64,000 nt of DNA from a virus (lineage: Duplodnaviria; Caudoviricetes): IMG/VR virus record IMGVR_UViG_2516653005_000001, positions 36,993 through 100,992 of that record. One strand, written 5' to 3'. Both the position numbers and the translations under genes were made by a program. This document shows, piece by piece, positions 2,438 to 26,788 of this stretch. The notes beneath the pieces are model-generated. The model saw only the letters and a list, made by a program, of their open reading frames with translations. It was not told where the DNA came from and did not search any database. Numbering within the stretch: position 1 is the stretch's first letter; each line of letters starts with the position of its first letter.

Positions 2438-2456
2438 AATTTTCTTTCTTGAAATA

Positions 2457-2531
2457 TGGAGCGGACGATCGGGATCGAACCGACGACCACCTGGTTGGAA
2501 GCCAGGAGCTCTACCGCTGAGCTACGTCCGC
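2457..2531 (-). tRNA. tRNA-Gly(UCC)
   Basis: Cloverleaf GCGGACG/CGTCCGC, anticodon arm CCTGG-CTTCCAA-CCAGG, GGTTCGATCCC, encoded CCA. Confidence 0.95.
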
Positions 2532-2536
2532 AAAAT

Positions 2537-2657
2537 TGGCCCCGCCGTTAACTGGCAGCGTTTGCCCTGCTTGGATTAGAGTCGGGGCGACACGGCGGGC
2601 ACATCGACCGACTGCCCACGAGCCGCCGCGCAATTTCGCGACGGTGTCCGTGGGACC
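2537..2657 (-). ncRNA. Candidate structured non-tRNA RNA ending in CCA
   Basis: CCCACG/CGTGGG hairpin, then CCCGCCG...CGGCGGG-G-CCA; no ORF. Confidence 0.45.
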
Positions 2658-2659
2658 AT

Positions 2660-3388
2660 TCAAATGACGTCTTCAAGTTCGAGGCGCTCTGCCGTAAGGA
2701 TGAAATCCTTCACCAGCTCGGAGCGGACAATGTCCTCGCCCGTGAACCGGATGCCTTCGAAGCGGTCCATCTGCTCCAGGATCTTCTGAAACTTCACGAA
2801 GCCAGACTTCTGCCGATGAGGCATGTAGTCGGTCTGCTTGGTGTCGCCGCAGAAGATCACACGGGAATTGTTTCCGACACGCGTGATCAGGCTCGACAGC
2901 TCTTCGAATGTCATGTTCTGACATTCGTCGATGATGATAACGGCGTTGTCGCGAGTGATGCCGCGAACATAGGCCGTGGTCGAGAACTCGATCAGCCCCT
3001 TCTGCTTCAGCACCTCGTAGGCGTCGCTCCGGCCGTAAAGCTCCGAGCAGATGTCCTTGTATGGCTCCTCATAGACGCGCGCCTTTTCAGACTCGCTTCC
3101 CGGCAGGAAGCCCATATCTCGGGACGGCACAGTCGATCGGAAGACGATGACCTTGTTGAAGTCGCGATTTTCGACGGCCCGCAGACCAAGATACAGCGCA
3201 ATGAACGATTTGCCGGTGCCGGCCGATCCAAAGGCATAGACGTTCTTGCCATCCTCGAAGGCGTCGAAGAACATCCCTTGTCTATCGGTAAGCGGGCGAA
3301 TGTTGGCGATGTTCATCGGATTGACCGGAGGCTTTGTGCCATTCCGCTCAGCCCGACGCTGCTTTCTATTGAGACGCTTTTCGTTCAT
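2660..3388 (-). CDS. phoH: PhoH family ATPase
   Basis: GSAGTGKS, MGFLPG, YVRGIT, IIDECQN, GDTKQTD, DIVRS. Confidence 0.93.
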   Translation of the reverse strand: MNEKRLNRKQRRAERNGTKPPVNPMNIANIRPLTDRQGMFFDAFEDGKNVYAFGSAGTGKSFIALYLGLRAVENRDFNKVIVFRSTVPSRDMGFLPGSESEKARVYEEPYKDICSELYGRSDAYEVLKQKGLIEFSTTAYVRGITRDNAVIIIDECQNMTFEELSSLITRVGNNSRVIFCGDTKQTDYMPHRQKSGFVKFQKILEQMDRFEGIRFTGEDIVRSELVKDFILTAERLELEDVI

Positions 3389-3415
3389 TGCGCACCATGA
3401 GGATCACCACCCAAC

Positions 3416-3949
3416 TCAATGGACGGTGTCCTTCTCGACCTTTGGTCTCCCCGCGCGCTGAGCGATTTCGAGGAGCTGGTCCTCGGTCATCTCCTGCACG
3501 GGTTTGGTCACGTTGAGATTTGTGTGGTTCTCGTCCTTCTGGCCGAGATAGTTCTTTCCAAGGAAGATCGCGGCGGGCGCGTTCTTGTCGGCCAGGGCGA
3601 GCTGCTTGCGACGCAGCGAGATCTTTGCGTGCTGGAGACCATCCTCCAGCGCCTCACGCGCTTCGTCGACGGCGTTCAGGAAGTTCGTCAATCCGCGTTT
3701 GCTGATACCGAGAACGGCTGCGATCTCCTCCTGGGTGCAGAACAGCTTTCCCAGCTCAAAGATGGTTCGCAGCGTCTCCTCGTCCGGATTGACCTTGGTG
3801 CCGCGTCGTCTGCGCGGCTTGGCGAGTTGCTCGTCGAGGAATGCCGTCTCTTCTGCGCTCTTGACCTGTTCTGCCTTTGCCGCAGCTTCGCGAGCCGCCT
3901 GCTCCTCCTTGGTCGGGCGTCCTCGACGCCGAGGTGGTAGACCTGTCAT
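3416..3949 (-). CDS. terS: Probable terminase small subunit (HTH)
   Basis: Start reassigned to ATG 3949 after GAGG; TQEEIAAVLGISK helix-turn-helix and AAIFLGKNYLGQKD motif; upstream of TerL. Confidence 0.7.
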   Translation of the reverse strand: MTGLPPRRRGRPTKEEQAAREAAAKAEQVKSAEETAFLDEQLAKPRRRRGTKVNPDEETLRTIFELGKLFCTQEEIAAVLGISKRGLTNFLNAVDEAREALEDGLQHAKISLRRKQLALADKNAPAAIFLGKNYLGQKDENHTNLNVTKPVQEMTEDQLLEIAQRAGRPKVEKDTVH

Positions 3950-3957
3950 TTCCTCAC

Positions 3958-4302
3958 TCAGATGGACTCCGTAGATCCGCGAGCGCCAGGAAAGGCGCTG
4001 TCGATCCAACTCAGAATTTGCGATTTCATGGCGGCACCGCTTCGCATGGCAGTGACCACGCCATTGTCGAACGCGACAAGCGTCGGCACTTGCGACACGG
4101 AGTATCGGCCGGCGACGATCTGGCACTGCTCGACGTCTGCGCTGTAGAAGGTCACAGCGCCCTTGAACTCGGACTCAAGTTCATCGAGTATTTTCTGGAT
4201 GGCCTTACACGGTTGGCACCAGGTGGCACCGAACTTCACGACCACAGGCGCTCGCGCCTTCAGCACCTCGGCATTGAATGTCGAGTCCGTCAGCTCCTTC
4301 AT
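3958..4302 (-). CDS. trxA: Thioredoxin
   Basis: MKELTDSTF...ATWCQPCK, VPTL cis-Pro motif; start at ATG 4302. Confidence 0.92.
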   Translation of the reverse strand: MKELTDSTFNAEVLKARAPVVVKFGATWCQPCKAIQKILDELESEFKGAVTFYSADVEQCQIVAGRYSVSQVPTLVAFDNGVVTAMRSGAAMKSQILSWIDSAFPGARGSTESI

Positions 4303-4304
4303 TG

Positions 4305-4715
4305 TTACCTCGAAAAGATTTTCTTGACTGACGCCACACCGGCAACGCCGCAGACCGTCAGGATGATGTTGTATTGCATGTCGGCATACGGCCCCGGCAA
4401 AGCGGCTACCTTCCATGAACCGACGACGTGCCCCATCAAGGGGATGCTGTCGAAGACGACAGCGGCTGCGTGGAAGATGAAGATGGCGAATGCGGTCGGC
4501 ACCATCCACGCCGTGAACCAATGCTCGCGGTCTCCAGCCCTAAGCTCGGAGGCCATGCGCGCGACTTCGACCTTGTAGCGAAGCTCCGCAACGTTGAGCT
4601 GAACATCACCGCCGATGGCCGTCTTGAATTTTTCCAGATCGGCATCTGTCTTCTTGTTCAGCCATTCGAGAAAGCCGCTCGCGAGCCCTGGAATGAGGGT
4701 CAGGAGTTTCCACAT
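4305..4715 (-). CDS. Membrane protein, possible 3-TM holin-like
   Basis: Hydrophobic segments and basic C-terminus VKKIFSR. Confidence 0.45.
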   Translation of the reverse strand: MWKLLTLIPGLASGFLEWLNKKTDADLEKFKTAIGGDVQLNVAELRYKVEVARMASELRAGDREHWFTAWMVPTAFAIFIFHAAAVVFDSIPLMGHVVGSWKVAALPGPYADMQYNIILTVCGVAGVASVKKIFSR

Positions 4716-4726
4716 CTAGACCTCGG

Positions 4727-4942
4727 CTATTTGATCGGCTCAAAGTTGTCCGCGAAGTAGCGCGCAGCAACGAGCCATTGGTCAGCGTGGTTCTTCGGAT
4801 TTCTTGCGATCATGTCTCCGACTACGGGAGAGCCTGCTAGTCGATCAGCTTCGCTGATGCTAACACCGTCCAGCGGTTCACCCTGGACATACGGGCGCAG
4901 TTCGGCGATCTGCTTTCTCTGGAATTTTTGAAAAGAACTCAC
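4727..4942 (-). CDS. Hypothetical phage protein
   Basis: 71 aa, RBS AGGA, in-line with operon. Confidence 0.7.
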   Translation of the reverse strand: MSSFQKFQRKQIAELRPYVQGEPLDGVSISEADRLAGSPVVGDMIARNPKNHADQWLVAARYFADNFEPIK

Positions 4943-4956
4943 TTACTGTCCTGAAA

Positions 4957-5030
4957 TGGCACCAGAGGAAGGACTCGAACCTTCGCGCAGCGGTTTTGGA
5001 GACCGTGCGGCTACGCCGGAGCGCTCTGAT
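4957..5030 (-). tRNA. tRNA-Trp(CCA), atypical short D-arm
   Basis: ATCAGAG/CTCTGGT acceptor, CT-CCA-AA loop, GAAGG-TTCGAGT-CCTTC, CCA end; C8 and shortened D region. Confidence 0.75.
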
Positions 5031-5036
5031 ATGAAA

Positions 5037-5195
5037 TGGCTCGGGGCTTCTCAGGGACGCAGGCCCTCGGCCCCAGTTAACTTTCCTGCGCTGCTAAGTA
5101 TGTCGTGATGGCGTCAGCCCTTTCGGCGCTTCCTCAGTTTGTGCTGCCTGTAGAGGTCAGCGATCCGCCGCAGCCGCGACCAGCGCTTTCCACCC
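5037..5195 (-). ncRNA. Candidate structured non-tRNA RNA ending in CCA
   Basis: GCGCTG/CAGCGC, GGGGC/GCCCC and AGGG/CCCT stems; ends GAGCCA followed by TTTC. Confidence 0.45.
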
Positions 5196-5196
5196 T

Positions 5197-5286
5197 TCAT
5201 TTCTTGCACTTGCCTCCGGACTTGCGGCCTGAGCCTCCACCAGCCTTGCGGCCAGACTTTCCCTTCGACTTGGCCTTCTTCGCCAT
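5197..5286 (-). CDS. 29-aa Lys/Gly-rich basic peptide
   Basis: MAKKAKSKGKSGRKAGGGSGRKSGGKCKK with AAAGGA upstream; below ORF-track cutoff. Confidence 0.65.
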   Translation of the reverse strand: MAKKAKSKGKSGRKAGGGSGRKSGGKCKK

Positions 5287-5314
5287 GCCTCATCCTTTCT
5301 CTCGTGGTGTGAAT

Positions 5315-5391
5315 TGGTCTGCGCAGCAGGATTTGAACCTGCGACCTCTCGCCTCCAAAGCGAGCGCCCTACCGGACTGAGCTATACGCAG
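5315..5391 (-). tRNA. tRNA-Pro(UGG)
   Basis: CTCGC-TTTGGAG-GCGAG arm, GGTTCAAATCC, CCA. Confidence 0.95.
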
Positions 5392-5422
5392 TTTGAGCTA
5401 TGTCCCGGTGATGCCGGCGTAA

Positions 5423-5698
5423 CTATCCGGCTGGATCTTCGACGTGCTCTTGCGGGATGCGCCAGTGATGCGGGACGGTCGTCACCGACATCGCGATGTT
5501 CGGAAGCATTGTCCCGAACACCCAATCAGAATGCGTTTGGTTGATCTCTTCTGTCGGCCTGACCAGCTTCGCGTGTCTGTAGACTTCCTTTGGAACGTCG
5601 CCGTAGGCGATCGGCTCCCACTCTTCGCCGTTCAGTTTCAGCCAAGCGATCATGGCCCGCGCGTGACTCTTGGTCGACGCGACCATGACGTTCTTCAT
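5423..5698 (-). CDS. Hypothetical protein
   Basis: 91-aa ORF in-line with operon. Confidence 0.65.
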   Translation of the reverse strand: MKNVMVASTKSHARAMIAWLKLNGEEWEPIAYGDVPKEVYRHAKLVRPTEEINQTHSDWVFGTMLPNIAMSVTTVPHHWRIPQEHVEDPAG

Positions 5699-5708
5699 TG
5701 TTGTTCTT

Positions 5709-6026
5709 CTAAGAGATGATGCTGTCGATCCAGGCGAATAGCTCTGGGTTGTCTCGTCGCGCCATCAGAAGGTAAGGCGTCAACATGGTGACGACGCTCT
5801 CTTCATCTTCCTTCGGCGACAGGCCCGCAGCGCTCCAACATGCGTGGATGATTTCGTGCTTCAACGCCTCTGCAAAAATCGTCAGCGGAATGTCCGGCTT
5901 AATCTTGATGGTGAGTTCGTGCCGGTCACACTCACCGAGCTGCCCCTCCTCCTCGAACTTGAGAACGCCGATCCGCAGTGTCGTTGGAAATGGCAGATCT
6001 TCTGTCGATGTGATTCTATCGTTCAT
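5709..6026 (-). CDS. Small HEXXH metallopeptidase-like phage protein
   Basis: LKHEIIHA...DEESVV motif. Confidence 0.6.
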   Translation of the reverse strand: MNDRITSTEDLPFPTTLRIGVLKFEEEGQLGECDRHELTIKIKPDIPLTIFAEALKHEIIHACWSAAGLSPKEDEESVVTMLTPYLLMARRDNPELFAWIDSIIS

Positions 6027-6074
6027 GGCTCGCCAATTCCGGCGGGCTGCTCGGTGATCAAAAACACTTCACTC

Positions 6075-6323
6075 TCACAATAAGGTCAGGCTCTTGGCGA
6101 TCTGTGACCAGCGCGGCCAATGATCCATGTAGTCCAGCGGTTCGGACTGCGTCATTTCGCGGTCCGCCATGATGAACACAACATGCTCGAATTGGCGGCA
6201 AGGACTGTCACACCACGAGTGGGTGGCCCAAATTTCGGGACTTAGCTGGTAGGCTTCGCGATGTCGCTCGGCGATTGAAACGTCGCTGGCCACGATCGCA
6301 TTCCACGGTTCCTGTCTGAACAA
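6075..6323 (-). CDS. Hypothetical protein
   Basis: TTG start; overlaps upstream ORF in another frame. Confidence 0.4.
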   Translation of the reverse strand: MFRQEPWNAIVASDVSIAERHREAYQLSPEIWATHSWCDSPCRQFEHVVFIMADREMTQSEPLDYMDHWPRWSQIAKSLTLL

Positions 6324-6462
6324 TCTCGCTCTCGGCCAGTGTCAGTTCGAATTTCTTGTTGAGGTCGGCTCGCGCGTCGAACACCTCACAGCATCCGCAC
6401 CCGAGCAGGCACGTCTTCTTGCCGCGCAAGTTGACGTCGCCGGCATGTCGGTTGGTCTTCAT
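6208..6462 (-). CDS. Hypothetical Cys-containing protein
   Basis: ATG overlaps stop of 6459..6716; MKTNRHAG...LLGCGCCE. Confidence 0.5.
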   Translation of the reverse strand: MKTNRHAGDVNLRGKKTCLLGCGCCEVFDARADLNKKFELTLAESEIVQTGTVECDRGQRRFNRRATSRSLPAKSRNLGHPLVV

Positions 6463-6716
6463 TTTTTGATTCCGGGCGGGAGCCACGGCGCTTCGAAAAT
6501 GCCCTTCTCGGCGGCCACGCACCTGACGGCGTTCGCCAGCTCTTCCCGTCTCCCCTGTTTGATGGCCGTGACCGGCGTGTCGCCGCCCAGGACATCGTTT
6601 CCTTTCAGCATGAACATCTGCGCCTCGACCGGGCCGATCAGCTTGTCGAGGTGCTGAATGACGTTCAGCGCGACGCCAGCCAGCGGGCTCGTCGAGATCG
6701 GATCGGCCTCAGGCAT
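6459..6716 (-). CDS. Xre/MbcA/ParS C-terminal-like antitoxin domain protein
   Basis: FMLKGNDVLGGDTPVTAIKQGRREEL resembles the WL..PN..LGG.TP...G motif. Confidence 0.5.
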   Translation of the reverse strand: MPEADPISTSPLAGVALNVIQHLDKLIGPVEAQMFMLKGNDVLGGDTPVTAIKQGRREELANAVRCVAAEKGIFEAPWLPPGIKK

Positions 6717-7140
6717 GGGCCAGCACGATTAGAGATCCGCCTGTGCCAGGATCGCGCCTGGCTGCGATTTCGACTGCCGAGAGCGCGTCGGCACCGGCCT
6801 CCATCGCACCGAGCGCAAACTCCTTGCCCGAGCCGATCGCGGTAAACTTGTCGGTCAACACAAACGACCCATCGGCCTCGTAGAGGCGGATGACACCGTT
6901 CTTGAAGGCGATGATGCCGCGATCGGTTTCGCCGGCCTCAGGCGGCGGCGTGTCTTCGCCGGCTTCCAGAAACCATCGCCGGAACTTTTCGGCGTATACT
7001 GTGCCGCCGGCAGATCCTGCCAGTGCGCCGTCGCGGTCCCGGCGGTAGATCTTGACGCAGTCGGACGAGACGATGGCGTAGCCCTGGATCATCCGCCCAT
7101 CGGCGGCCATCTCGCCATCCCTGTAGGCGATCGTCGTCAT
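6709..7140 (-). CDS. Ntn-hydrolase (HslV/proteasome-beta-like) protein
   Basis: Start reassigned to ATG 7140: MTTIAY...AADGR, AIGSG..FALGAM, D..TGG. Confidence 0.7.
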   Translation of the reverse strand: MTTIAYRDGEMAADGRMIQGYAIVSSDCVKIYRRDRDGALAGSAGGTVYAEKFRRWFLEAGEDTPPPEAGETDRGIIAFKNGVIRLYEADGSFVLTDKFTAIGSGKEFALGAMEAGADALSAVEIAARRDPGTGGSLIVLAHA

Positions 7141-7400
7141 AGGCCGCGCCACCATCGCTTGATGAGATAGACCCAGACGGCCGGCGTCGTCAGATATGCG
7201 ATCGTGCCCTTCGCCGTCATGGCTTGGTATCCCTTTGCGTGGACAACGTATCCGTTCCAGCAGAACTGGTTGCGGCTCTCCTTCGACACGAGGTCGCCGT
7301 CCCAAACGAGGCCGCGATCGAACAACTGGAATGCAGTGTCGAGGTCACCGCTATCTGCGCGGAATTTTCCATCGACTAGGATCTTACGGATCATGCCCAC
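7137..7400 (-). CDS. Hypothetical protein
   Basis: 87-aa ORF overlapping next start. Confidence 0.6.
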   Translation of the reverse strand: MGMIRKILVDGKFRADSGDLDTAFQLFDRGLVWDGDLVSKESRNQFCWNGYVVHAKGYQAMTAKGTIAYLTTPAVWVYLIKRWWRGL

Positions 7401-7408
7401 GTCGAAAT

Positions 7409-7557
7409 TGGCCTTTTAGGGTTTGCGTTGAAACGGCGACCCTCGAAGCGAGGGGGTCTTTTTGATGACGGCAGGCCCCTGGACGGGAGTCTTCACACGG
7501 GCCTCTCGCCCGCGTCGCAGGATTGCGTCCGGTGCATAATCCCGGACTGCGCTGCCA
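7409..7557 (-). ncRNA. Candidate structured non-tRNA RNA ending in CCA
   Basis: Nested GGCAG/CTGCC, CGCAG/CTGCG, TCCGG/CCGGA, ACGCGGGC/GCCCGTGT; ends GGCCA followed by ATTTC. Confidence 0.5.
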
Positions 7558-7561
7558 TAAC

Positions 7562-7637
7562 TGGTGCCGGCTGAGGGGCTCGAACCCCCGACCTACGGAT
7601 TACAAATCCGCTGCTCTTCCAACTGAGCTAAACCGGC
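7562..7637 (-). tRNA. tRNA-Thr(UGU)
   Basis: GCGGA-TTTGTAA-TCCGT arm, GGTTCGAGCCC, CCA. Confidence 0.95.
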
Positions 7638-7697
7638 GATCGGCGGAACCAGAAGGTTGCTCTGGACAAGTCGCGCATCCCCGGCTTGGATCTGCCC

Positions 7698-7955
7698 ATG
7701 AAAGATTCCAGAACCGTCATAGAGCTTGAAGCCGAGGGCTATCACCACATCTGCGGTGAATGCTGCAAAGGCTATGTCTGGTTGCCCTTCAGGATGCTGC
7801 GAGAGAGTGTGCCTAGCCTGGACACGATGACGGTCGACCAGATCGGAGCGAGAATGCGCTGCACCAAGTGCGGCAGTCGCCCGACCCGCTATTACCCAGA
7901 GCGTCAGGAGGACGCGCCGGGCTTCGTCAGGAAGTTCTCGTATCCGTCCAGTTGA
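7698..7955 (+). CDS. Small zinc-ribbon protein, opposite to the surrounding operon
   Basis: C..CC and RMRCTKCG motifs. Confidence 0.55.
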   Translation: MKDSRTVIELEAEGYHHICGECCKGYVWLPFRMLRESVPSLDTMTVDQIGARMRCTKCGSRPTRYYPERQEDAPGFVRKFSYPSS

Positions 7956-7958
7956 AAT

Positions 7959-8035
7959 TGGCTTGGGAGGCTGGGCTCGAACCAGCAACAACTCGGTTAA
8001 CAGCCGAGCGCTCTACCAATTAAAGCTACTCCCAA
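7959..8035 (-). tRNA. tRNA-Asn(GUU)
   Basis: CTCGG-CTGTTAA-CCGAG arm, GGTTCGAGCCC, CCA. Confidence 0.95.
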
Positions 8036-18947: not shown

Positions 18948-19079
18948 GTCACTCATGACCCGTGCTCTCGACAACATCGGGCGTCTGCTCGAAACGATCG
19001 CCGATGCCTTCATCATCGACATGGTGTTCGCCCTGACCGGCGCCGACATCTCGGTCCCGCACAAGACGGGATTGTCATC

Positions 19080-19613
19080 ATGAAGGCGTTCAATAAGGAC
19101 GAACCATTTACCCTTTCGGAGGTCGAAGCCGCCCTCTGTGTGTGGGAGACCATTCTCAAATGGGTGTGCGACGAGCAGTGCAAACGCCCAGAATGGGAAG
19201 GCGCCAATGATGGTTACGGAGCATATGAGCTGCGCATGCAGTCCATGGTGCTTGGCCGCTGGTGTCTGGCAGTCATCGACATCTGCGAGAAGCGCGACCC
19301 CCAACTGTTCGATGGCATGGCATGGGACTGGGAAGTCATCCCGTTGGTCCTCGGCTACGCAATGACAGCAGACGGACAAGCCGCAATCTATGCACAAGAA
19401 CTTCGCGATTATCGCGACATTGCGGAACTGGTCTATGACCGTGTCAAGCGCGACGAGTTCATCGGAAAAGCCAAGGCTCATGCCGCGTTGATGGGTCTCT
19501 CAGCAGATCTGATCGACGATCACCCGAGTGAAGTCGACAACGCTATCGGCGAGGGCCAAGCCCCGAAAGACTTCGTCACCAAGCTCGCACTGAGTGTGGC
19601 CGACGCCTCCTGA
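19080..19613 (+). CDS. Hypothetical protein
   Basis: 177-aa ORF. Confidence 0.7.
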   Translation: MKAFNKDEPFTLSEVEAALCVWETILKWVCDEQCKRPEWEGANDGYGAYELRMQSMVLGRWCLAVIDICEKRDPQLFDGMAWDWEVIPLVLGYAMTADGQAAIYAQELRDYRDIAELVYDRVKRDEFIGKAKAHAALMGLSADLIDDHPSEVDNAIGEGQAPKDFVTKLALSVADAS

Positions 19614-19618
19614 CAAAC

Positions 19619-19695
19619 GCTCCAATCGTCTAACGGCTAGGACGTCAGCCCCCTCAGGCTGGAAATACGCGGTTCGAGTCCCGTTTGGAGCGCCA
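19619..19695 (+). tRNA. tRNA-Glu-like gene with 8-nt anticodon loop (CCCCUCAG) and bulged T-stem
   Basis: GCTCCAA/TTGGAGC; TCAGC-CCCCTCAG-GCTGG; ACG(C)GG-TTCGAGT-CCCGT; G-CCA; 77 nt. Confidence 0.85.
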
Positions 19696-19737
19696 TCTTC
19701 GTAACTACTCGTTTGCTTGAATTGGAAGGATGAGCGA

Positions 19738-20328
19738 ATGCAAATCTCGTTGAAGCGCGCACTTAAACTGCGCAAGGAACTGGAAGGCCGGTTGAGCTCC
19801 ATGGAGTTTCCGACCGCCGTTAATATCAGCCTGCTCACGGACCTGAGCCGCGAGCAGATCGAGACCGCTATCGAAGCGGCGTCGACGGCGATCGACAAAG
19901 CGTTCGCTCAGTACGAGCAACTGTCTCGCGTCCTCGCCGAGCTGCGCCAGAACATCGCGAAGGCCAACCTCGATAACGGTGTCGAAGCGGCGCTGTCCGA
20001 GATCGCTCACATCGATCGCAAGATCACCATCCGGAAGAAGCTCGCCAGCATCGCGGTGATGCCGCAGATCGACGCAGTCATGGCTGAGGTCGAGTTCTCT
20101 CGCCGCGCTCTGATCTCGCCCGATACGACCAGCTATCGTTCACCGTCCAAGGCGATCGGCTTCTCGGCGGTCTCCGAAACGCTGAAGGAAGAGATCGCCG
20201 GCGAGCTGGCGCAGCTTCGGCGCGACCGCGAAGCCATCGAAGACAAGCGCGCAGCCGCCAACGCTGGCACGCGTATCACCATTGCTGATGAGGACAACGA
20301 ACTGCTCCGGCAGCTCGGCATCCTCTGA
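19738..20328 (+). CDS. All-helical coiled-coil protein, DIP1984/DUF6847-like
   Basis: ISLKRALKLRKEL...LRQNIAKAN...IEDKRAAANAGTRITI pattern; family call is by resemblance only. Confidence 0.5.
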   Translation: MQISLKRALKLRKELEGRLSSMEFPTAVNISLLTDLSREQIETAIEAASTAIDKAFAQYEQLSRVLAELRQNIAKANLDNGVEAALSEIAHIDRKITIRKKLASIAVMPQIDAVMAEVEFSRRALISPDTTSYRSPSKAIGFSAVSETLKEEIAGELAQLRRDREAIEDKRAAANAGTRITIADEDNELLRQLGIL

Positions 20329-20334
20329 CGCAAT

Positions 20335-20545
20335 GGGAGGGGTACTTGTAGAGAGATACTGAAACATTTCGCTCTTCAATGAGCGCCATTGGCAAACGGC
20401 TTTTCGTTATCCGGAATAATCAACCAAGCCCGATCCTAGCTATCTGGGCATTCGTGAATTGATCCGGTTTATGGGCCTTCGTTGCTCGTGCTTCGTCGCT
20501 CGTTTGTGGTCGATCGTTCGTATCTCATCAACTCGTACCCCTCCC
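20335..20545 (+). ncRNA. Candidate ncRNA with closing stem and heptad repeats
   Basis: GGGAGGGGTAC/GTACCCCTCCC, GAGATAC/GTATCTC; six 7-nt units at 20478-20519. Confidence 0.65.
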
Positions 20546-20550
20546 TCCCC

Positions 20551-20625
20551 GCTCCGCTCGTCTATCGGCTAGGACGCTCGCTTCTCAGGCGAGAAAGACA
20601 GGTTCGACTCCTGTGCGGAGCACCA
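20551..20625 (+). tRNA. tRNA-Glu(CUC), A73
   Basis: CTCGC-TTCTCAG-GCGAG, 4-nt variable loop, ACAGG-TTCGACT-CCTGT, CCA. Confidence 0.93.
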
Positions 20626-20669
20626 TCGATTTCCCCTGCCCGAACTAAGCACACGGTTTCGGACGCCAG

Positions 20670-20746
20670 GCTCCCATCGTCTATCGGCTAGGACACCGTC
20701 CCCCTCAGGACGGAAAGGCGCGGTTCGAGTCCCGCTGGGAGCGCCA
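20670..20746 (+). tRNA. tRNA-Glu-like gene with 8-nt anticodon loop (CCCCUCAG) and bulged T-stem
   Basis: GCTCCCA/TGGGAGC; CCGTC-CCCCTCAG-GACGG; GCG(C)GG-TTCGAGT-CCCGC; G-CCA; 77 nt. Confidence 0.85.
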
Positions 20747-20769
20747 TTCAATTCACCACAGGCAACACC

Positions 20770-21768
20770 ATGAAACTCGAAAATATCGGCTTCTACACGC
20801 TCTCCGATTTCAGAGCGCAACATGCGTCTGCAACGTCCGATCTCAAGCGCTGCGAGGTCGTGCTGACATCGCGCTGCAACTTCAACTGTCCCTACTGCCG
20901 GCATGTCGGCGGCGACGACCTGGCTCTCGAACACGCCAAGACTGTGGTGAAGCTGTGGGCGGCTGACAACCTGTCCGCGATCCGCTTCTCCGGCGGAGAA
21001 CCGACGCTGTATCCAGGTCTCGGCGAGCTGGTCGATCTGTCCGCGTCTCTCGGCATCGGCCGCATCGCCATCTCATCGAACGGCTCGATCGCGTGGCGTC
21101 GCTACCAGGAGCTGATCAATCGGGGCGTCAACGACTTCTCGATCTCGCTGGACGCTTGCTGCGCCGAGGTCGGCGACAAGATGGCCGGCGGCATCAAAGG
21201 CGCATGGGCCAAGGTTGTCGCCAACATCGAGCGGATCAGCGCGGCAACCTACACGACGGTCGGCGTCGTCCTCACCGAGGACAATATCAAGACTGTCAAC
21301 GACATCATCCGTTTCGCTGCCGGCCTCGGCGTTGCCGATATCCGCATCATTCCTGCGGCCCAGGACGGCGACCGCCTGCGCGGCGTGGAGGTCGATCAGG
21401 ATCTGCTCGACAAGTTCCCGATCCTGAACTACCGGATCAAGAACTTGCAGGCCGGTCGGCCAGTGCGCGGCGTCTCCAAGACCGACACCCCGAAGTGCGG
21501 CCTCGTCCTCGACGACATGGCCGTGTGCGGGGACGAGCACTACCCCTGCATCATCTACATGCGTGAGGGCGGCGCTCCGATTGGTAAGGTCGGCCCGAAC
21601 ATGCGGTCCGAACGCGAGGCGTGGCACGCGACCCACAATTCGCGTCTCGACCCGATCTGCAGCCGCAACTGCCTCGACGTTTGCGTCGACTACAACAACA
21701 AGCACGCCAACTTCGCTTGCGCCAAGATGCGCAAGATGCAGGAGCGGGAATACGCAATCGCGTGCTGA
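20770..21768 (+). CDS. Radical SAM protein with C-terminal auxiliary-cluster cysteines
   Basis: CNFNCPYC, SGGEP, SISLD; C...YPC...CSRNCLDVC. Confidence 0.92.
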   Translation: MKLENIGFYTLSDFRAQHASATSDLKRCEVVLTSRCNFNCPYCRHVGGDDLALEHAKTVVKLWAADNLSAIRFSGGEPTLYPGLGELVDLSASLGIGRIAISSNGSIAWRRYQELINRGVNDFSISLDACCAEVGDKMAGGIKGAWAKVVANIERISAATYTTVGVVLTEDNIKTVNDIIRFAAGLGVADIRIIPAAQDGDRLRGVEVDQDLLDKFPILNYRIKNLQAGRPVRGVSKTDTPKCGLVLDDMAVCGDEHYPCIIYMREGGAPIGKVGPNMRSEREAWHATHNSRLDPICSRNCLDVCVDYNNKHANFACAKMRKMQEREYAIAC

Positions 21769-21776
21769 TCCAACAC

Positions 21777-21851
21777 GCTCCAATCGTCTATCGGCTAGGA
21801 TGCCAGCTTCTCAGGCTGGAGAGGTAGGTTCGATTCCTGCTTGGAGCGCCA
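21777..21851 (+). tRNA. tRNA-Glu(CUC), G73
   Basis: CCAGC-TTCTCAG-GCTGG, GTAGG-TTCGATT-CCTGC, CCA. Confidence 0.93.
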
Positions 21852-21866
21852 TTTCAAGGACGTAAC

Positions 21867-22172
21867 ATGACTGACCTTTGCGTCGACGATCGCTTTCCAA
21901 TTGTCAGCGAAGACTGCGAGCCCTTCGCTGCGATGATGATCGGCAAGATGTGGGCGCGAGCCCAGGCCGTGAAGGGCGATCCGGATATGTACATCCTTGC
22001 GATGAGAAACGTCTGGTGGACGGCGGAGCAGCTGCTCCGCCTTTCTATCCTTGCTTCGACTGCAACGCACTTCTGCATTGCCTGCAACAACCATCTGCAA
22101 ATCTTGGCGCAGATAATCAAAGCGGAGTTCGGTGTCGATCCGAACAACGAACCAAGCTGGCAATGGAAATAG
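21867..22172 (+). CDS. Hypothetical protein
   Basis: AAGGA RBS. Confidence 0.6.
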   Translation: MTDLCVDDRFPIVSEDCEPFAAMMIGKMWARAQAVKGDPDMYILAMRNVWWTAEQLLRLSILASTATHFCIACNNHLQILAQIIKAEFGVDPNNEPSWQWK

Positions 22173-22340
22173 ATCCTCTAGGGAGGATTGAGCGCACGTG
22201 CCCGAATCCCGGTCTGGTCAAGACACGTGCGCAATAGTCCGGTGGCTACCTTGCCCGTAAGGGTGCGGTTTCAATCCGCTTAATAGCTAGACGACTGAGC
22301 GGTGTCGGCAAACCCGGCAAGCGCGGTGGAAAGCCGCGCA
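22172..22340 (+). ncRNA. Candidate structured RNA with T-loop-like hairpins
   Basis: GCGCACGTG/CACGTGCGC; GCCC-GTAA-GGGT; GCGG-TTTCAAT-CCGC; GCGCGG-TGGAAAG-CCGCGC. Confidence 0.55.
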
Positions 22341-22373
22341 ACAATTTCAACAAGCCAATGATGGAGAACCGGC

Positions 22374-22559
22374 ATGAGTGCCGATCGCATCTATGTGTCT
22401 GAGCGCTCCGCCGCAGATGCTGGCAGGAAAGCTGTCAAGCTTCGTAAGGCTGACGACTTTCGCATCCTTCCACGTATCCAGCGCAATCCAGATCGCTCGA
22501 TTGAACGCGGCTTCGCAGCACTGCTGAAGATACGCGGACGCAGCGTTGGCTACGCCTGA
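22374..22559 (+). CDS. Small basic protein
   Basis: GGAGA RBS. Confidence 0.6.
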   Translation: MSADRIYVSERSAADAGRKAVKLRKADDFRILPRIQRNPDRSIERGFAALLKIRGRSVGYA

Positions 22560-22654
22560 ACATCATGGCCGGTTCGCCCTCCTTCCCGGCCATGAGCGGT
22601 CGCTCTCCTCGTGAGGGCGACCGCAGCTTACCTCACCACAACAGGAACACCGTC

Positions 22655-22825
22655 ATGTACATCCGACAGGAAGTTCGAAAGCTCGCGTCGCAGTTTCTCG
22701 ACGGCACGCCGATGTATCCGGGGGACTGGCTGTTCACCTGGGTCAAGACCCCGTTCATGCCTGAGGTTCTCGTCGGCATGGAGCCGATGCCCAAGGCCAA
22801 GGCCAACGCCGACGCGCAACGCTGA
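22655..22825 (+). CDS. Hypothetical protein
   Basis: AGGA RBS, MYIRQEV. Confidence 0.55.
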   Translation: MYIRQEVRKLASQFLDGTPMYPGDWLFTWVKTPFMPEVLVGMEPMPKAKANADAQR

Positions 22826-22840
22826 ACTTAAGGACGCACA

Positions 22841-23524
22841 ATGAGCAAAGCACTTTACAGTCTCGGCGGGCTCCGCTTCTGGGACGAAAGCGAAATCGAA
22901 CTTCGCGAGATGTTTCAGTCCCGCGCGGTCTCCGTCGTTAAACGCTCGCTGATCAGCCTCAACAAGGCGTGGACCATCACTCGTATGGAAGGTCCGTGTC
23001 TGTCACCGCGTGACCAGATCAGCGCATCGTATGGCGATGACGATCTGTTCTGCACCAATCACACAGCCGGCGGCGGACAGCTCTACCTGCGGGCAGAGAC
23101 GACGCCGTCCAGTTACGCCTTCGCCCGGAAACTCTCGGCGAAGCTTCCGCTCTGTGTCTGGCAGTCCGGCAAAAGCTTCCGCCGCGAAACCAATGACGGG
23201 GCGAGCGCCAGCAAGCTGCGCTTCAACGAGTTCTGGCAACTCGAATTTCAGTGCATCTATGCTGAGGACACCAAAGCCGACTATCGCGCAGAGGTGATCG
23301 CCGCGCTGTGCCCTGAACTTCTTCGCTTCACCGGCCGGCTTCCGCGCACGGTGCCGAGTGACCGCCTGCCTTCGTATTCGGAAAGCACGATCGATATCGA
23401 GCTGAGCCTCGGCGAGGGCAAGTGGCGCGAAGTCGCATCGTGCTCGATCCGCAACGACTACCTTCCCGGAACGAAGGTCTGCGAGATCGCTATCGGTCTG
23501 GATCGCGTCGTTTCGCTTGCTTAG
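22841..23524 (+). CDS. Stand-alone class II aminoacyl-tRNA synthetase catalytic domain, GlyRS(alpha2)-like, no anticodon-binding domain
   Basis: YLRAETT, motif 2 QSGKSFRRE...LRFNEFWQLE, WREVAS, motif 3 EIAIGLDRV at the extreme C-terminus. Confidence 0.85.
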   Translation: MSKALYSLGGLRFWDESEIELREMFQSRAVSVVKRSLISLNKAWTITRMEGPCLSPRDQISASYGDDDLFCTNHTAGGGQLYLRAETTPSSYAFARKLSAKLPLCVWQSGKSFRRETNDGASASKLRFNEFWQLEFQCIYAEDTKADYRAEVIAALCPELLRFTGRLPRTVPSDRLPSYSESTIDIELSLGEGKWREVASCSIRNDYLPGTKVCEIAIGLDRVVSLA

Positions 23525-23546
23525 TGACGACCCATCGGAGGCGGCA

Positions 23547-23741
23547 ATGCCCGAATACTCTATTCGTGATTGCGGGCAGGAGTCGGTCAAGGTGTTCCGA
23601 AAGCGCGAGCGCTCACACTCGCTCGCGCATGCTTGGAGAACACCGAGTGGCTTCTGGATCGTCAGTGTCACCGGCCTCAAAATGGACGTAACCCCCAACA
23701 GGAAGTCCGCCAAGGACTATCTGAGGAAGTATTTCAAATGA
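23547..23741 (+). CDS. Hypothetical protein
   Basis: GGAGG RBS. Confidence 0.6.
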   Translation: MPEYSIRDCGQESVKVFRKRERSHSLAHAWRTPSGFWIVSVTGLKMDVTPNRKSAKDYLRKYFK

Positions 23742-25081
23742 TCACCGGAGACACACTGATCCTGTGGGGCTTTAAGCCAGGCCGCTGGTTCAAACAGGCC
23801 ATCGCCGATGCCAACAAGCTGCGGAGCGACGGCCTGAGCGACGATCAGATCTTCACCTATCTGCAATCGCTGCAGCCGGTCGAGATCACGCTGCGGACGA
23901 ACTCGCTTCCCTATGGCATTTTCATCGATCACAACACTGATCAAGAGCGAGCCAACGTCGAAGCTGTCGTTCGACACATGGATGCGCTGATGCGCGTGCC
24001 GACCATCAAGGATGGCGCGGTCATGCCGGACTCTTGCCCCGCCGGCGCTGCCGAAGGCACGATTCCAGTCGGCGGCGTCGTCTCCTGCGAAGACGCTATC
24101 CATCCCGGCTTCCACTCGGCGGATATCTGCTGTTCGGTCGCGATCAGCACCTTCCGCCGCGACGACAACCCGAAGGTCCTGCTCGACGCCGTCCAGGCCG
24201 TCACGCATTTTGGACCCGGCGGGCGTTCGAGGTCGAACAACCTTGTTCCGAAGGAACTCCTGGCCAAGATGGACGGCAACCGCTTCCTGCACGAGCTGGA
24301 AGGCTATGCACGCGCCCACTTCGCCACACAGGGTGACGGCAACCACTTCGCCTACGTCGGACGGGTGAAATCAAGCGGTAAGCTGGCGCTTGTCACCCAT
24401 CACGGCTCGCGTGGCTTTGGTGCTCAGGTCTACAAGCGCGGCATGGCGGCGGCCAAGAAGCACACCGCGATCGTCGCCCCGAAGGTGCCGGCACACAACG
24501 CCTGGATCAAGGCGGACAGTGACGATGGCCGCGCCTATTGGGAGGCTCTCCAGGTTGTCCGCGAATGGACCAAGGCGAACCACTTCGCGATCCACGATCT
24601 GGCCGCCCGTGCCATCGGCAACGGCGTCGACGAACGCTTCTGGAACGAGCACAACTTCGTCTTCCAGAAGAGCGACGGGCTGTTCTACCACGGCAAGGGC
24701 GCGACCCCGAATTGGTCCGGCTTCTCACCCGACGACTCCGGCCTCACGCTCGTTGCCCTGAACATGGCCGAGCCGATCTTGATGTTGGCGCACACCAACA
24801 ACAAGGAAGCCCTCGGCTTTGCTCCGCACGGAGCCGGTCGCAACATGGGTCGCAGGGCATTCCTTCGCGACAATGCGCCGGAGCTTCCGGCCGGCATCGA
24901 CGCCCGCTTCTACTGCGGCAAGCCCGATCTCGCAGAACTTCCGCAAGCCTATAAGGATGCGGCTTCTGTTCGAGCCCAGATCGACAAGTACCAGATCGGC
25001 CGCGTCGTCGATGAGATCATTCCCTACGGCTCGATCATGGCCGGCGATTGGGAGAAGGACGCACCATGGCGAAAGAAGTGA
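23738..25081 (+). CDS. rtcB: RtcB family RNA ligase
   Basis: MPD, DICCS, GDGNHF, HHGSRG, NEHNF, HGKGA, PHGAGR, ELPQAYK; start at ATG 23738. Confidence 0.92.
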   Translation: MITGDTLILWGFKPGRWFKQAIADANKLRSDGLSDDQIFTYLQSLQPVEITLRTNSLPYGIFIDHNTDQERANVEAVVRHMDALMRVPTIKDGAVMPDSCPAGAAEGTIPVGGVVSCEDAIHPGFHSADICCSVAISTFRRDDNPKVLLDAVQAVTHFGPGGRSRSNNLVPKELLAKMDGNRFLHELEGYARAHFATQGDGNHFAYVGRVKSSGKLALVTHHGSRGFGAQVYKRGMAAAKKHTAIVAPKVPAHNAWIKADSDDGRAYWEALQVVREWTKANHFAIHDLAARAIGNGVDERFWNEHNFVFQKSDGLFYHGKGATPNWSGFSPDDSGLTLVALNMAEPILMLAHTNNKEALGFAPHGAGRNMGRRAFLRDNAPELPAGIDARFYCGKPDLAELPQAYKDAASVRAQIDKYQIGRVVDEIIPYGSIMAGDWEKDAPWRKK

Positions 25082-25281
25082 CGTGCGAGGCATGCAACAA
25101 CCATCGCTACATCATCGCTCTGCGCGATGACGGACGGAAGGCCATCGAGGCGTGCGACAGTTGTGCCAGCCATATCCTTCCCGACGACAAAGCTGCGGCG
25201 ATTGCTCGGTGGGATGGCATTGATTGCAACGAAACATACCCCTGCTACCTCAAAGATCAATCTTACAATCCGGACCTGTGA
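25066..25281 (+). CDS. Small zinc-binding protein
   Basis: CEAC and CDSC. Confidence 0.55.
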   Translation: MAKEVTCEACNNHRYIIALRDDGRKAIEACDSCASHILPDDKAAAIARWDGIDCNETYPCYLKDQSYNPDL

Positions 25282-25289
25282 GCGCTGTC

Positions 25290-25577
25290 ATGGCAAGCGA
25301 TATAACATCTAGCGACTGTCGGTGTCAGAAACAGATGGGCAACGACTTCCTATTCCTCCCCGCAGGAAGTTGCCTGTTCGGCACCTGTGACAAGGACGCA
25401 AACCGGGTCGACAGCAACGATATTGTCGACCGTATCCGACGCTTCGTCGCTAGTCGCGGCGGCCCAGCGAAGGACGATAACGGCAAGCCGATTGGCAACT
25501 CGTGGCCCATGATGCTCGAAGCCGCAGACGAGATCGAACGGCTGCGTAAAGCCATCACCTACCAGAGAGAAACATAA
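25290..25577 (+). CDS. Hypothetical protein
   Basis: DIVDRIR...EAADEIERLR motif common in phages. Confidence 0.55.
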   Translation: MASDITSSDCRCQKQMGNDFLFLPAGSCLFGTCDKDANRVDSNDIVDRIRRFVASRGGPAKDDNGKPIGNSWPMMLEAADEIERLRKAITYQRET

Positions 25578-25939
25578 TGACGACATCGACGTTGCTTGCC
25601 GCAACCACGCGAAAGATCCTGCATGAGCGCTTCCCGGCGTGCTTTGCCGGCAAGGGCAAGGACAAGCGCCCGCTGGCGATCGGCATCCACAAGCAGGTTT
25701 TCGAGGCCGCGCCCGACCTTTCGCGCCGCTCGATCCGGCTGGCCATCCGCGACTACGTCAGCGGCTACAAATATCTACGCAACGTTCGGACCGGTGCGAC
25801 ACGCATCAATCTGGACGGGTCTCTGGCCGGAGCGGTCGTCTCTGAGCACGGCGATTTCTCGCACAAGATCGCCCGTCGCATGCTGCGGACGAAGCGAGCC
25901 AAGAAGCAGGCTCGCCCGGTGATGAAGGTCGCAGCCTAG
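25577..25939 (+). CDS. proQ: ProQ/FinO-domain RNA-binding protein
   Basis: RFPACF...RPLAIGIH...IRLAIRDYVSGYKYL...RINLDG...V..EH. Confidence 0.88.
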   Translation: MTTSTLLAATTRKILHERFPACFAGKGKDKRPLAIGIHKQVFEAAPDLSRRSIRLAIRDYVSGYKYLRNVRTGATRINLDGSLAGAVVSEHGDFSHKIARRMLRTKRAKKQARPVMKVAA

Positions 25940-25951
25940 CAGGAGGTTCAA

Positions 25952-26149
25952 ATGCGTTACGTGCTGAATGTAGTCAACTATCCGAACAAGGAACTGTACC
26001 CCGACAAGCTATGCGCTGACCGTGGTCAATTCGACGACTATCTGCAGACGATCGAGCCGGGCTGGACATCTCTGGTGGTGTCGATACTGCCGCCGGCACA
26101 GGAGGCCACATGCTCCACTTCGTCGGCTTCAAGGACGATCGGTACCTAA
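25952..26149 (+). CDS. Hypothetical protein
   Basis: AGGAGG RBS. Confidence 0.6.
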   Translation: MRYVLNVVNYPNKELYPDKLCADRGQFDDYLQTIEPGWTSLVVSILPPAQEATCSTSSASRTIGT

Positions 26150-26307
26150 ACGCGGTCCGCGTGTTCGGGCGTCCCGATTTCATCCATCGACGATGGGACG
26201 CCCGCGCGGTCTGTGAGGTCGCTCCTGGTGATGTTGTCGTCTTCGCTGATGGTGACGAGACGCAGGCGATCTATCCCTATGCCTACGACGACAGCGCGTT
26301 CTTCTGA
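26110..26307 (+). CDS. Conserved hypothetical phage protein
   Basis: AGGAGG RBS; LHFVGF...AVRVFGRPDFIHRRWD. Confidence 0.7.
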   Translation: MLHFVGFKDDRYLNAVRVFGRPDFIHRRWDARAVCEVAPGDVVVFADGDETQAIYPYAYDDSAFF

Positions 26308-26338
26308 AACACTTTTACCGTCCGCGAAGCCCTTCACT

Positions 26339-26788
26339 ATGAGCAAGATGTTCGAAACACTCGTGACCCTTCCTGGGTGCGACACCCCGGAGCCATCGCT
26401 CCGCGAGATTGTGCGGGCCTATTACAGCCCTCACTTCCATCACGAAGATGCGGATCGGCTAACAGAGATGTACATCAGAGCCGTCTCATCCAAGAGGCCG
26501 GCGGTTGCTGACGGCGCTACTGAGATCAAGATCAGTTATCGACAATTCATGTGCCTCGCAGTGCTCGTCGAGGCCACGGAAAGCGAACGCGTCGCTTCAT
26601 ATGACAGCGTGATGAGTGAAACCGGGCTGACGTTATACCAAACGAGGTGTGCTGTCCGAGCTCTCGCCCGAAAGGGCCTCGCAGAGCAGTCGCCAGCTTA
26701 CTGCGACGACGGGTTTCTTCGCGGTAGCGGATACGTATCGACCCGTGATGGCGTCATCTTGTACCGCCATCTCGCGAACTTGCATTGA
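26339..26788 (+). CDS. Winged-HTH-like protein
   Basis: SETGLT...RCAVRALARKGLAE...GSGY. Confidence 0.55.
   Translation: MSKMFETLVTLPGCDTPEPSLREIVRAYYSPHFHHEDADRLTEMYIRAVSSKRPAVADGATEIKISYRQFMCLAVLVEATESERVASYDSVMSETGLTLYQTRCAVRALARKGLAEQSPAYCDDGFLRGSGYVSTRDGVILYRHLANLH

Follow-up and report, generated by a model that had tools for sequence, protein, structure and literature searches.

Does a compact phage locus in which unusual tRNA genes stand beside enzymes of RNA metabolism constitute one dedicated system, or a place where separable functions have gathered? The question is raised by a block of 6.3 kb on the + strand (positions 19619-25939) of a 64,000-nucleotide stretch of a caudoviricete virus, hereafter the window, which covers positions 36,993 to 100,992 of IMG/VR record IMGVR_UViG_2516653005_000001. 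The source is a 100,992-base virus record, classed as a provirus in IMG/VR, with an estimated completeness of 83%. Its block contains tRNA-Glu-type genes (tE1 to tE4), a radical S-adenosylmethionine (SAM) enzyme, a GlyRS-like aminoacyl-tRNA synthetase (aaRS) reduced to its catalytic core (mini-aaRS), the RNA ligase RtcB, a ProQ/FinO-domain protein and several structured RNAs (Table 1). A first-pass annotation, made from the letters of the DNA only, had proposed a dedicated pathway that charges, modifies and repairs special tRNAs. The reading that is somewhat favoured here, at slightly better than even chances, is that of an accessory island, located in the early region of a Bradyrhizobium-type phage of ~100-120 kb, and not of a single fixed multi-gene system.

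As an inventory, the annotation holds up well. All of its elements are present and co-oriented, and they appear intact. Rfam recovers the four tRNA-Glu-type genes that had been claimed, two canonical with anticodon CUC and two with an 8-nt anticodon loop, and the radical SAM gene is indeed tightly flanked by tRNAs, starting 23 nt past tE3 and stopping 8 nt before tE4. Folding and conservation bear out a coiled-coil gene with its own 3′ RNA and two further structured RNAs, and profile matches do the same for the GlyRS-like enzyme devoid of an anticodon domain, RtcB and the ProQ/FinO protein. The separation of these tRNAs from a second set is likewise found, the latter (Gly, Trp, Pro, Thr, Asn; ARAGORN) being located on the − strand at 2457-8035.

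A conserved core and a variable slot

The closest named relative, Bradyrhizobium phage BDU-MI-1 (locus L001), is ~74% identical across one quarter of the block. It has in common with the window the upstream genes, an 8-nt-loop tRNA, the coiled-coil gene and the first part of the RNA behind it, as well as RtcB and the downstream minus-strand gene. It contains no radical SAM, mini-aaRS or ProQ gene, and the slot before RtcB is occupied by other open reading frames (ORFs) and an HD_4 protein. The latter (L001:5814-6368, directly before RtcB) is annotated as 'GTP pyrophosphokinase' and matches the HD_4 hydrolase domain only; from its domain content it looks like a small alarmone-hydrolase-type protein of the RelA/SpoT kind and not like a synthetase. 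Homologues of the coiled-coil gene are found in two Bradyrhizobium genomes (L153, L154) and in one metagenome-assembled genome of Methylobacteriaceae (L155). In all three the coiled-coil gene is followed by the intergenic region and then by a canonical tRNA-Glu(CUC), at the position that tE2 has in the window; RtcB is found in L155 only. Taken together, the coiled-coil gene, the structured RNA and a gene of the tRNA-Glu(CUC) family occur jointly in five of five related genomes and RtcB in three of the five. The RtcB of the window is 71% identical to the BDU-MI-1 copy (74% for the gene at the DNA level) and 70% identical to that of L155.

The RNA of ~220 nt is conserved 3′ of the coiled-coil gene in BDU-MI-1, L153, L154 and L155. 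Its terminal stem (20335-20345 with 20535-20545) keeps its pairing between the window and its relatives through double changes, as read by eye from the alignments; the covariation term of RNAalifold is +2.4, which gives no net support on a poor automatic alignment. Near its 3′ end, at 20480-20530, runs an A-poor, U/C/G-rich tract with UCGU-like repeats that is conserved in BDU-MI-1, L153 and L154 and is possibly a platform for protein binding. The coiled-coil protein has nine homologues, one of them from a Bradyrhizobium genome, and its profile found no relative in the viral contig collection. In the ESM Atlas it falls close to DUF6847/DIP1984-like clusters, a position that serves as a lead only.

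These comparisons suggest a core composed of a tRNA-Glu(CUC)-family gene, the coiled-coil gene and the ~220-nt RNA, with a variable slot between this core and RtcB. In the window the slot holds the duplicated tRNA-Glu copies, the radical SAM gene, a non-coding RNA of rhizobiophages and the GlyRS-like core protein, with the ProQ/FinO gene placed after RtcB, and this cargo would consist of independently mobile genes for tRNA or RNA maintenance. Such an island may serve to keep translation going during infection. The canonical tRNA-Glu(CUC) copies would be dedicated GAG readers in hosts that apparently encode only tRNA-Glu(UUC), RtcB would reseal tRNAs or other RNAs after cuts by host nucleases, and the cargo enzymes would have RNA, tRNA ends or nucleotides as their targets in this conflict, with the 8-nt-loop tRNA-Glu derivatives presumably maintained by selection.

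Table 1. Features of the island, in window coordinates
Feature	Position	Strand	Match or remark
tE1, tRNA-Glu-like, 8-nt anticodon loop CCCCUCAG, extra T-arm base, encoded CCA	19619..19695	+	Rfam 42.7 bits; R1 model 49.8 bits
Coiled-coil protein, 196 aa (P0003), phage family of unknown function	19738..20328	+	phrog_25230
Structured RNA, ~220 nt	20329..20550	+	fold z = -5.4, 0/200 shuffles as good
tE2, canonical tRNA-Glu(CUC)	20551..20625	+	ARAGORN; Rfam 51.4 bits
tE3, second tRNA-Glu-like gene, 8-nt loop CCCCUCAG	20670..20746	+	Rfam 36.1 bits
Radical SAM enzyme, 332 aa (P0001), large orphan phage family	20770..21768	+	PF04055, 69.1 bits vs cut-off 29.5
tE4, canonical tRNA-Glu(CUC)	21777..21851	+	ARAGORN; Rfam 51.9 bits
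ORF, 101 aa	21867..22172	+	no Pfam, PHROG or NCBIfam match
Structured RNA	22192..22345	+	conserved in rhizobiophages; covarying stems
ORF, 61 aa	22374..22559	+	no family match
Two adjacent strong hairpins between small ORFs	22563..22624	+	fold z = -4.4, 0/200 shuffles as good
Class II aaRS catalytic core, GlyRS-like, 227 aa (P0002), no anticodon-binding domain	22841..23524	+	PF00587, 31.3 bits
RtcB RNA ligase, 447 aa (P0004)	23738..25081	+	PF01139, 92.6 bits vs 27; phrog_1075, 1e-93
Two small ORFs (25078-25281 and 25290-25577)	25078..25577	+	no family match
ProQ/FinO-domain protein, 120 aa	25577..25939	+	PF04352, 76.2 bits vs cut-off 27

Independent assortment of the cargo genes

The radical SAM family was surveyed at 158 unique loci (1.47 Mb) from viral and metagenome collections, with neighbours identified by phmmer. 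A mini-aaRS is nearby in one of these loci, and the coiled-coil gene in none. In whole records, the mini-aaRS is absent from five of five near-complete jumbo phages that have the radical SAM gene, and the latter from five of five records that have the mini-aaRS; among named phages the two occur in disjoint sets. Seen from the other side, radical SAM, RtcB and ProQ genes are found in none of 16 viral mini-aaRS loci by tblastn and in none of 15 on a phmmer rescan. ProQ is absent from the 158 radical SAM loci, 15 mini-aaRS loci, BDU-MI-1 and L153-L155. The first-pass annotation had named independent assortment across genomes as the outcome that would speak against its proposal, and since the genes do assort independently across loci, this outcome largely obtains. 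It applies to most pairs, that of radical SAM gene and mini-aaRS being found in 1/158 loci and 0/10 whole records.

Two pairwise links are nevertheless real, one between the radical SAM gene and RtcB, the other between the mini-aaRS and tRNA arrays. RtcB is located near the radical SAM gene in 14 of the 158 loci, in 12 of them at 800 bp or less and on the same strand. Pnkp-like and Rnl-like genes are each found near it in two loci, which adds three loci to those with RtcB. A single co-inherited system would be recognized by co-occurrence of its genes across unrelated genomes, and only the radical SAM/RtcB pair recurs in this manner. What stands of the dedicated system is thus its theme of tRNA supply, repair and counter-defence, visible in the radical SAM/RtcB pair, the mini-aaRS in tRNA arrays and the HD_4 protein of the slot; its unity is largely at odds with the assortment. 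A striking neighbourhood in a single genome need not mean a fixed system.

Canonical and 8-nt-loop tRNA-Glu genes

All four tRNAs pass the Rfam RF00005 gathering score of 29 bits, with match spans of 19619-19692 (tE1), 20551-20622 (tE2), 20670-20743 (tE3) and 21777-21848 (tE4). ARAGORN calls only tE2 and tE4, both as tRNA-Glu(CUC). These two have the loop UUCUCAG and with it the attributes of a canonical elongator tRNA-Glu, namely a 7-nt loop, U33 and an anticodon YUC. Direct reading of tE1 and tE3 gives instead an 8-nt loop, CCCCUCAG, in which CUC is not preceded by U, and shows that the T-arm region carries an additional base. ViennaRNA predicts a cloverleaf for all four, the anticodon arm of tE1 and tE3 being predicted as a 6-bp stem closed by a 6-nt loop. 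The four tRNAs are paralogues with 70-83% identity, one duplicated copy of which carries its upstream flank.

The canonical CUC copies fit codon supply. In 59 long ORFs, GAG accounts for 768 of 19,267 codons, which makes it the fifth most used codon and represents 65% of Glu codons. In two Bradyrhizobium genomes searched by blastn, the tRNA-Glu genes retrieved were the CUC copy of the prophage and a single host gene with UUC, and no others.

The 8-nt-loop copies present a different picture. tE1 and tE3 differ in their stems and have an identical loop. tE1 is syntenic with a BDU-MI-1 tRNA (L001:4013-4089), whose 8-nt loop is CUUCUCGG. In a 95.6%-identical relative (an 83.5-kb metagenome contig from run X3) the tE1 loop is unaltered, the sole change in this tRNA being a stem U-G pair that becomes C-G; the tE3 loop is CACCUCAG there, still of 8 nt, and neither 8-nt tRNA contains an indel. 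Contigs from another study (X5, ~92% identity) also keep the 8-nt loop, with no indel within tE3. Across eight sequences of the tRNA-Glu family, 144 of 144 stem cells are standard pairs, 7 of 18 stem pairs display double-sided changes, and the observed covariation score was reached by none of 500 shuffles. The retention of the 8-nt loop and of stem pairing in relatives argues against simple decay. Because the bases 5′ of CUC vary among relatives (CCC, CAC, CUU), there is no conserved four-base anticodon. Named phages searched by blastn with the 8-nt tRNA yielded BDU-MI-1 as sole match, and an exact pattern of D arm plus loop had no match in viral or genome contig collections, a narrow pattern that would miss other 8-nt-loop tRNAs. 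The 8-nt-loop tRNA-Glu derivatives are conserved and would most likely be nuclease-evading, decoy or repair-linked versions of tRNA-Glu and not ordinary decoders.

The radical SAM enzyme and RtcB

The radical SAM enzyme contains the cluster motif CNFNCPYC, in which C36, C40 and C43 are invariant, and combines this CxxxCxxC signature with a partial TIM-barrel fold, as is typical of the superfamily. A second, C-terminal set of cysteines comprises the invariant C243, C260, C297 and C301, with C305 conserved in at least 90% of members. Its structural model (predicted local distance difference test score, pLDDT, 90.7) is nearest to BlsE (PDB 7VOB), followed by SkfB, MoaA, DesII, sactipeptide maturases and viperin, with TM values of 0.44-0.65 and ~12-24% identity; among these solved folds BlsE, SkfB and MoaA carry twitch/SPASM-type domains. 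The protein scores below every named NCBIfam cut-off (MoaA, 78.6 vs 284; PqqE, 61.5 vs 381; prokaryotic viperin, 41 vs 180). By sequence and fold it is predicted to be of twitch type, and its neighbourhood hints at RNA or nucleotides as substrate. The family is very large, with 3602 homologues, and the recurrent adjacency of RtcB offers a neighbourhood clue for this orphan phage family. No paper was found on phage RtcB together with a radical SAM enzyme in the literature covered, which did not extend to Burroughs and Aravind 2016 on RNA repair systems. RtcB itself has the active-site motifs HGAGR and HxGSRG, which align to Pyrococcus horikoshii RtcB, and belongs to the RtcB family by its sequence.

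Other neighbours of the radical SAM gene recur as well. In 16 of the first 100 loci it adjoins a protein of ~90 aa (e.g. L073:6311-6583) with conserved W, R, A-x-G, R-x-K, M-F and W-x-H and no Pfam match, and in 9 of the first 100 a small cyclase-like protein with no Pfam match at E<=0.05. At the radical SAM gene of the window both partners are missing, and tRNA genes stand on either side. Two ORFs were considered for the role of the ~90-aa partner and rejected, that of 101 aa with an hhalign probability of 0.1% and one of 86 aa on comparison. Fifteen other loci have a tRNA at 1.5 kb or less from the radical SAM gene, and the closest one is Arg(UCU) in four, Glu-type in two and of other kinds in nine, so that the family displays no general tie to tRNA-Glu. 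A specific tie with tRNA-Glu, raised by loci L069 and L104, was thereby weakened as loci were added. tRNA-Arg(UCU) is the nearest or nearest upstream tRNA in five loci (L004, L019, L035, L097, L181); it makes up only a small part of the tRNAs encoded at these loci, and its proximity may be due to chance or shared ancestry.

The GlyRS-like mini-synthetase

The mini-aaRS displays the signatures of a class II core, with a motif 2 of the type fRxE ... F.Q.E and a motif 3 of the type G.G..R. Ten residues are invariant in 26 members of its family (R114, R115, E116, R127, F128, Q133, E135, G219, L220, R222), which we take to be distributed over motifs 2 and 3. Its model (pLDDT 87.8) has GlyRS catalytic domains as top solved folds (TMq 0.62-0.69), and the acidic residues that hold glycine in GlyRS are presumably kept. 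The protein is not a bona fide GlyRS: it has 227 aa and no Pfam domain outside the core, and its best NCBIfam match, GlyRS NF003211, reaches 37.9 bits against a cut-off of 312. From these models and motifs, it probably activates an amino acid, which is probably glycine. Truncated aaRS paralogues with non-translational roles include the amino acid:carrier-protein ligases of Bradyrhizobium and Agrobacterium, HisZ and EpmA. The mini-aaRS is like them in its class II core, its intact ATP and amino acid motifs and its lack of an anticodon-binding domain; it differs from them in being GlyRS-like, and not SerRS-, HisRS- or LysRS-like, in its length and in its frequent location within tRNA arrays.

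Homologues number 1261 and are metagenomic and largely of phage origin, so that more than 1200 GlyRS-like catalytic cores, which tend to sit among tRNA genes, are now apparent. A literature search surfaced no paper on a phage GlyRS-like enzyme without an anticodon domain. At L059, L061, L062/L063 and L066 the mini-aaRS gene is part of a tRNA array, and there is no tRNA within the fetched DNA at 10 of 16 loci. In Sinorhizobium phage Phosso (L246) a tRNA with a CUA anticodon (3591-3666) is found 330 bp upstream of the homologue (3998-4750); it is annotated 'tRNA-Undet', and CysRS, an RNA ligase and peptidyl-tRNA hydrolase are encoded nearby. Locus L074 (=L007; gene coordinates 149-838, 1823-3133, 3620-4951, 5423-6355) contains a Pnkp-like kinase/phosphoesterase, composed of AAA_33 and Metallophos domains, and an RNA-ligase-like protein with a KxDGxN motif. 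This neighbourhood has the appearance of a Pnkp/Rnl counterpart of the RtcB neighbourhood of the window.

Alternative explanations

Several observations weigh against the accessory-island reading. Within the narrow lineage the genes stay together, 19600-25076 being undivided in the 95.6%-identical relative. At L074 a mini-aaRS, the Pnkp-like and Rnl-like genes and a radical SAM gene lie within 6 kb, which echoes the window. At L069 the radical SAM gene stands between a Glu(UUC) and a Glu(CUC) tRNA (2483-2560, 3902-3979), whose sequences are unlike those of the window, and in a 26.5%-GC phage contig a Glu-like tRNA with the 6-nt loop CUCUCC (L104:1204-1281) is located 342 bp upstream of the radical SAM homologue; a specific link between the enzyme and tRNA-Glu remains compatible with both loci. 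Furthermore, just 93 of the 158 radical SAM loci have at least 1.5 kb on both sides, and because many are short, co-occurrence is undercounted. Finally, the absence of a host tRNA-Glu(CUC) is drawn from one blastn search and two draft genomes.

Some of these observations are what would be expected if the block were one unit, in which the mini-aaRS, blind to the anticodon, charges the 8-nt-loop tRNAs, the radical SAM enzyme alters these tRNAs or what they carry, repair falls to RtcB and ProQ serves as chaperone of the RNAs. The co-orientation of the genes within 6.3 kb, the wedging of the radical SAM gene between tRNAs, the retention of the entire block in the close relative, the repetition of mini-aaRS, RNA repair and radical SAM genes at L074, the odd-loop tRNA of L104 and the pairing of a mini-aaRS with a suppressor-type (CUA) tRNA in Phosso all speak for it. 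Such a pathway is quite improbable all the same, given that radical SAM gene and mini-aaRS meet in a single surveyed locus and in no whole record, that ProQ and the coiled-coil gene accompany neither of them elsewhere, that BDU-MI-1 has the 8-nt tRNA without radical SAM, mini-aaRS or ProQ genes, that most mini-aaRS loci (10/16) have no tRNA in the fetched DNA, and that many kinds of tRNA are nearest to the radical SAM gene. The opposite explanation, according to which unrelated accessory genes have collected next to decaying tandem-duplicate pseudo-tRNAs in tRNA clusters that are merely insertion hot spots, accounts readily for the independent assortment of the proteins, for the paralogy of the tRNAs, one duplicated with its flank, for the variant loops without U33 and the rejection of tE1 and tE3 by ARAGORN, and for the unmatched, narrow D-arm and loop pattern. 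It is nonetheless unlikely. The 8-nt loop persists syntenically in BDU-MI-1, at a distance where the RtcB genes have 74% DNA identity, and in two closer relatives; all tRNA stem pairs are retained with compensatory changes; the two window copies share their loop despite different stems; and the radical SAM gene adjoins RtcB in 12 independent loci.

Least probable of the explanations considered is that the 8-nt-loop tRNAs are natural +1 frameshift suppressors that decode a quadruplet in the programmed recoding of a phage gene. An 8-nt loop is reportedly the hallmark of the classic suppressors SufB2 and SufJ, and the extra base sits 5′ of CUC. A crude scan for +1 junctions in the 101-kb genome, however, gave two candidate pairs of ORFs, with GAGG in neither overlap and one of them probably the shadow of an opposite-strand gene; in addition, the bases 5′ of CUC differ between relatives and the window copies have no U33. 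Only a little less improbable, and proposed by analogy, is a bolder version of the repair theme. The 8-nt-loop tRNAs might be partners of RtcB, spares suited in advance to a nuclease that excises one anticodon-loop base, with the radical SAM enzyme possibly adding a protective or restoring modification. The model for such a nuclease is the wobble-excising RloC type, and that for the modification is Hen1 in bacterial Pnkp/Hen1 repair. If this were true, the loss of a single base at the wobble position or 5′ of it, followed by RtcB sealing, would leave CCCCUCAG as a 7-nt loop with CUC, and the BDU-MI-1 loop CUUCUCGG would likewise become a 7-nt loop with CUC or UUC, both of which are Glu anticodons.

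Relation to known systems and significance

Phage tRNAs and RNA ligases are now regarded as counter-measures to tRNA-cutting defences, a picture that the island extends. In one known arrangement, T4 Pnkp/Rnl1 counters PrrC, and phage tRNAs with anticodon-loop mutations evade host tRNases (eLife 2023, PMC10264068). The accessory island resembles this arrangement in combining phage copies of tRNAs with an RNA ligase and in having loops that are unlike those of the host. It differs in that RtcB takes the place of Pnkp/Rnl and that the loop is changed by an added base, with no substitution. In the accessible portion of PMC10264068 there is no occurrence of Glu, RtcB or insertion.

Phage tRNAs also neutralize the PARIS or retron defences by replacing depleted host tRNAs, as reported in PMC11464382 and PMC11555353. 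The likeness lies in single phage-encoded tRNAs that serve as counter-defence. These cases concern tRNA-Lys and tRNA-Tyr with normal 7-nt loops, whereas the window has tRNA-Glu(CUC) and 8-nt variants, for which the role is a predicted one. With SufB2 and SufJ, which are reportedly laboratory mutants of cellular tRNAs that act as +1 frameshift suppressors with a defined four-base anticodon, the 8-nt tRNAs of the window share the length of the loop; in contrast to them, the added base is variable, U33 is missing and no recoding site appeared in the crude scan. Conserved tRNA derivatives with an 8-nt anticodon loop, syntenic with RtcB, provide a concrete and testable case of non-standard phage tRNAs.

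Accompanying RNAs and genomic setting

Since the last protein of the block passes the Pfam FinO cut-off and fails the NCBIfam ProQ equivalog cut-off (70.9 vs 127), it is a FinO-domain-only protein. In the X3 relative, window positions 25077-25311, which include a 67-aa ORF (25078-25281), are replaced by 11 other bases; this relative contains 19600-25076 intact in a single piece and is otherwise collinear over 19600-25947. Promoter-like and terminator-like sites in 19000-26500 are at chance level (1 vs 1.8 expected and 7 vs 6.0 expected, respectively). Among the listed data sets that contain the stretch, none is recorded as RNA; fragments of it are also present in two wastewater "RNA-Seq" runs, which are probably DNA.

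Rfam at E<=5 assigned no family to any of the three non-tRNA RNAs, for which reason the long-stem RNA is no longer taken to be Y-RNA-like; the only match of 22563-22624 is to Xoo2 and remains below threshold (20.8 bits vs 45). The RNA at 22192-22345 matches Sinorhizobium phages phiM12, phiN3, phiM7 and phiM19, and five distinct instances are distinguished, in the window, phiM12, phiN3 and two IMG/VR lineages (coordinates elsewhere: L002:3993-4141; L149:1467-1630; L150:10115-10270; L151:3842-3995). Within a 9-bp stem lies a 23-nt element (22201-22223) that is invariant and folds into two 3-bp mini-hairpins, and the loop of the 3′ hairpin is UGGAAAG. Double-sided changes affect 14 of 33 predicted pairs, including all nine of the first stem. 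In three of the five instances (phiM12, phiN3 and L151/L152) this RNA directly adjoins tRNA genes, a setting in which it presumably resembles the small stable RNAs of the T4 tRNA cluster. Two undescribed families of structured RNA are thereby revealed in rhizobiophages.

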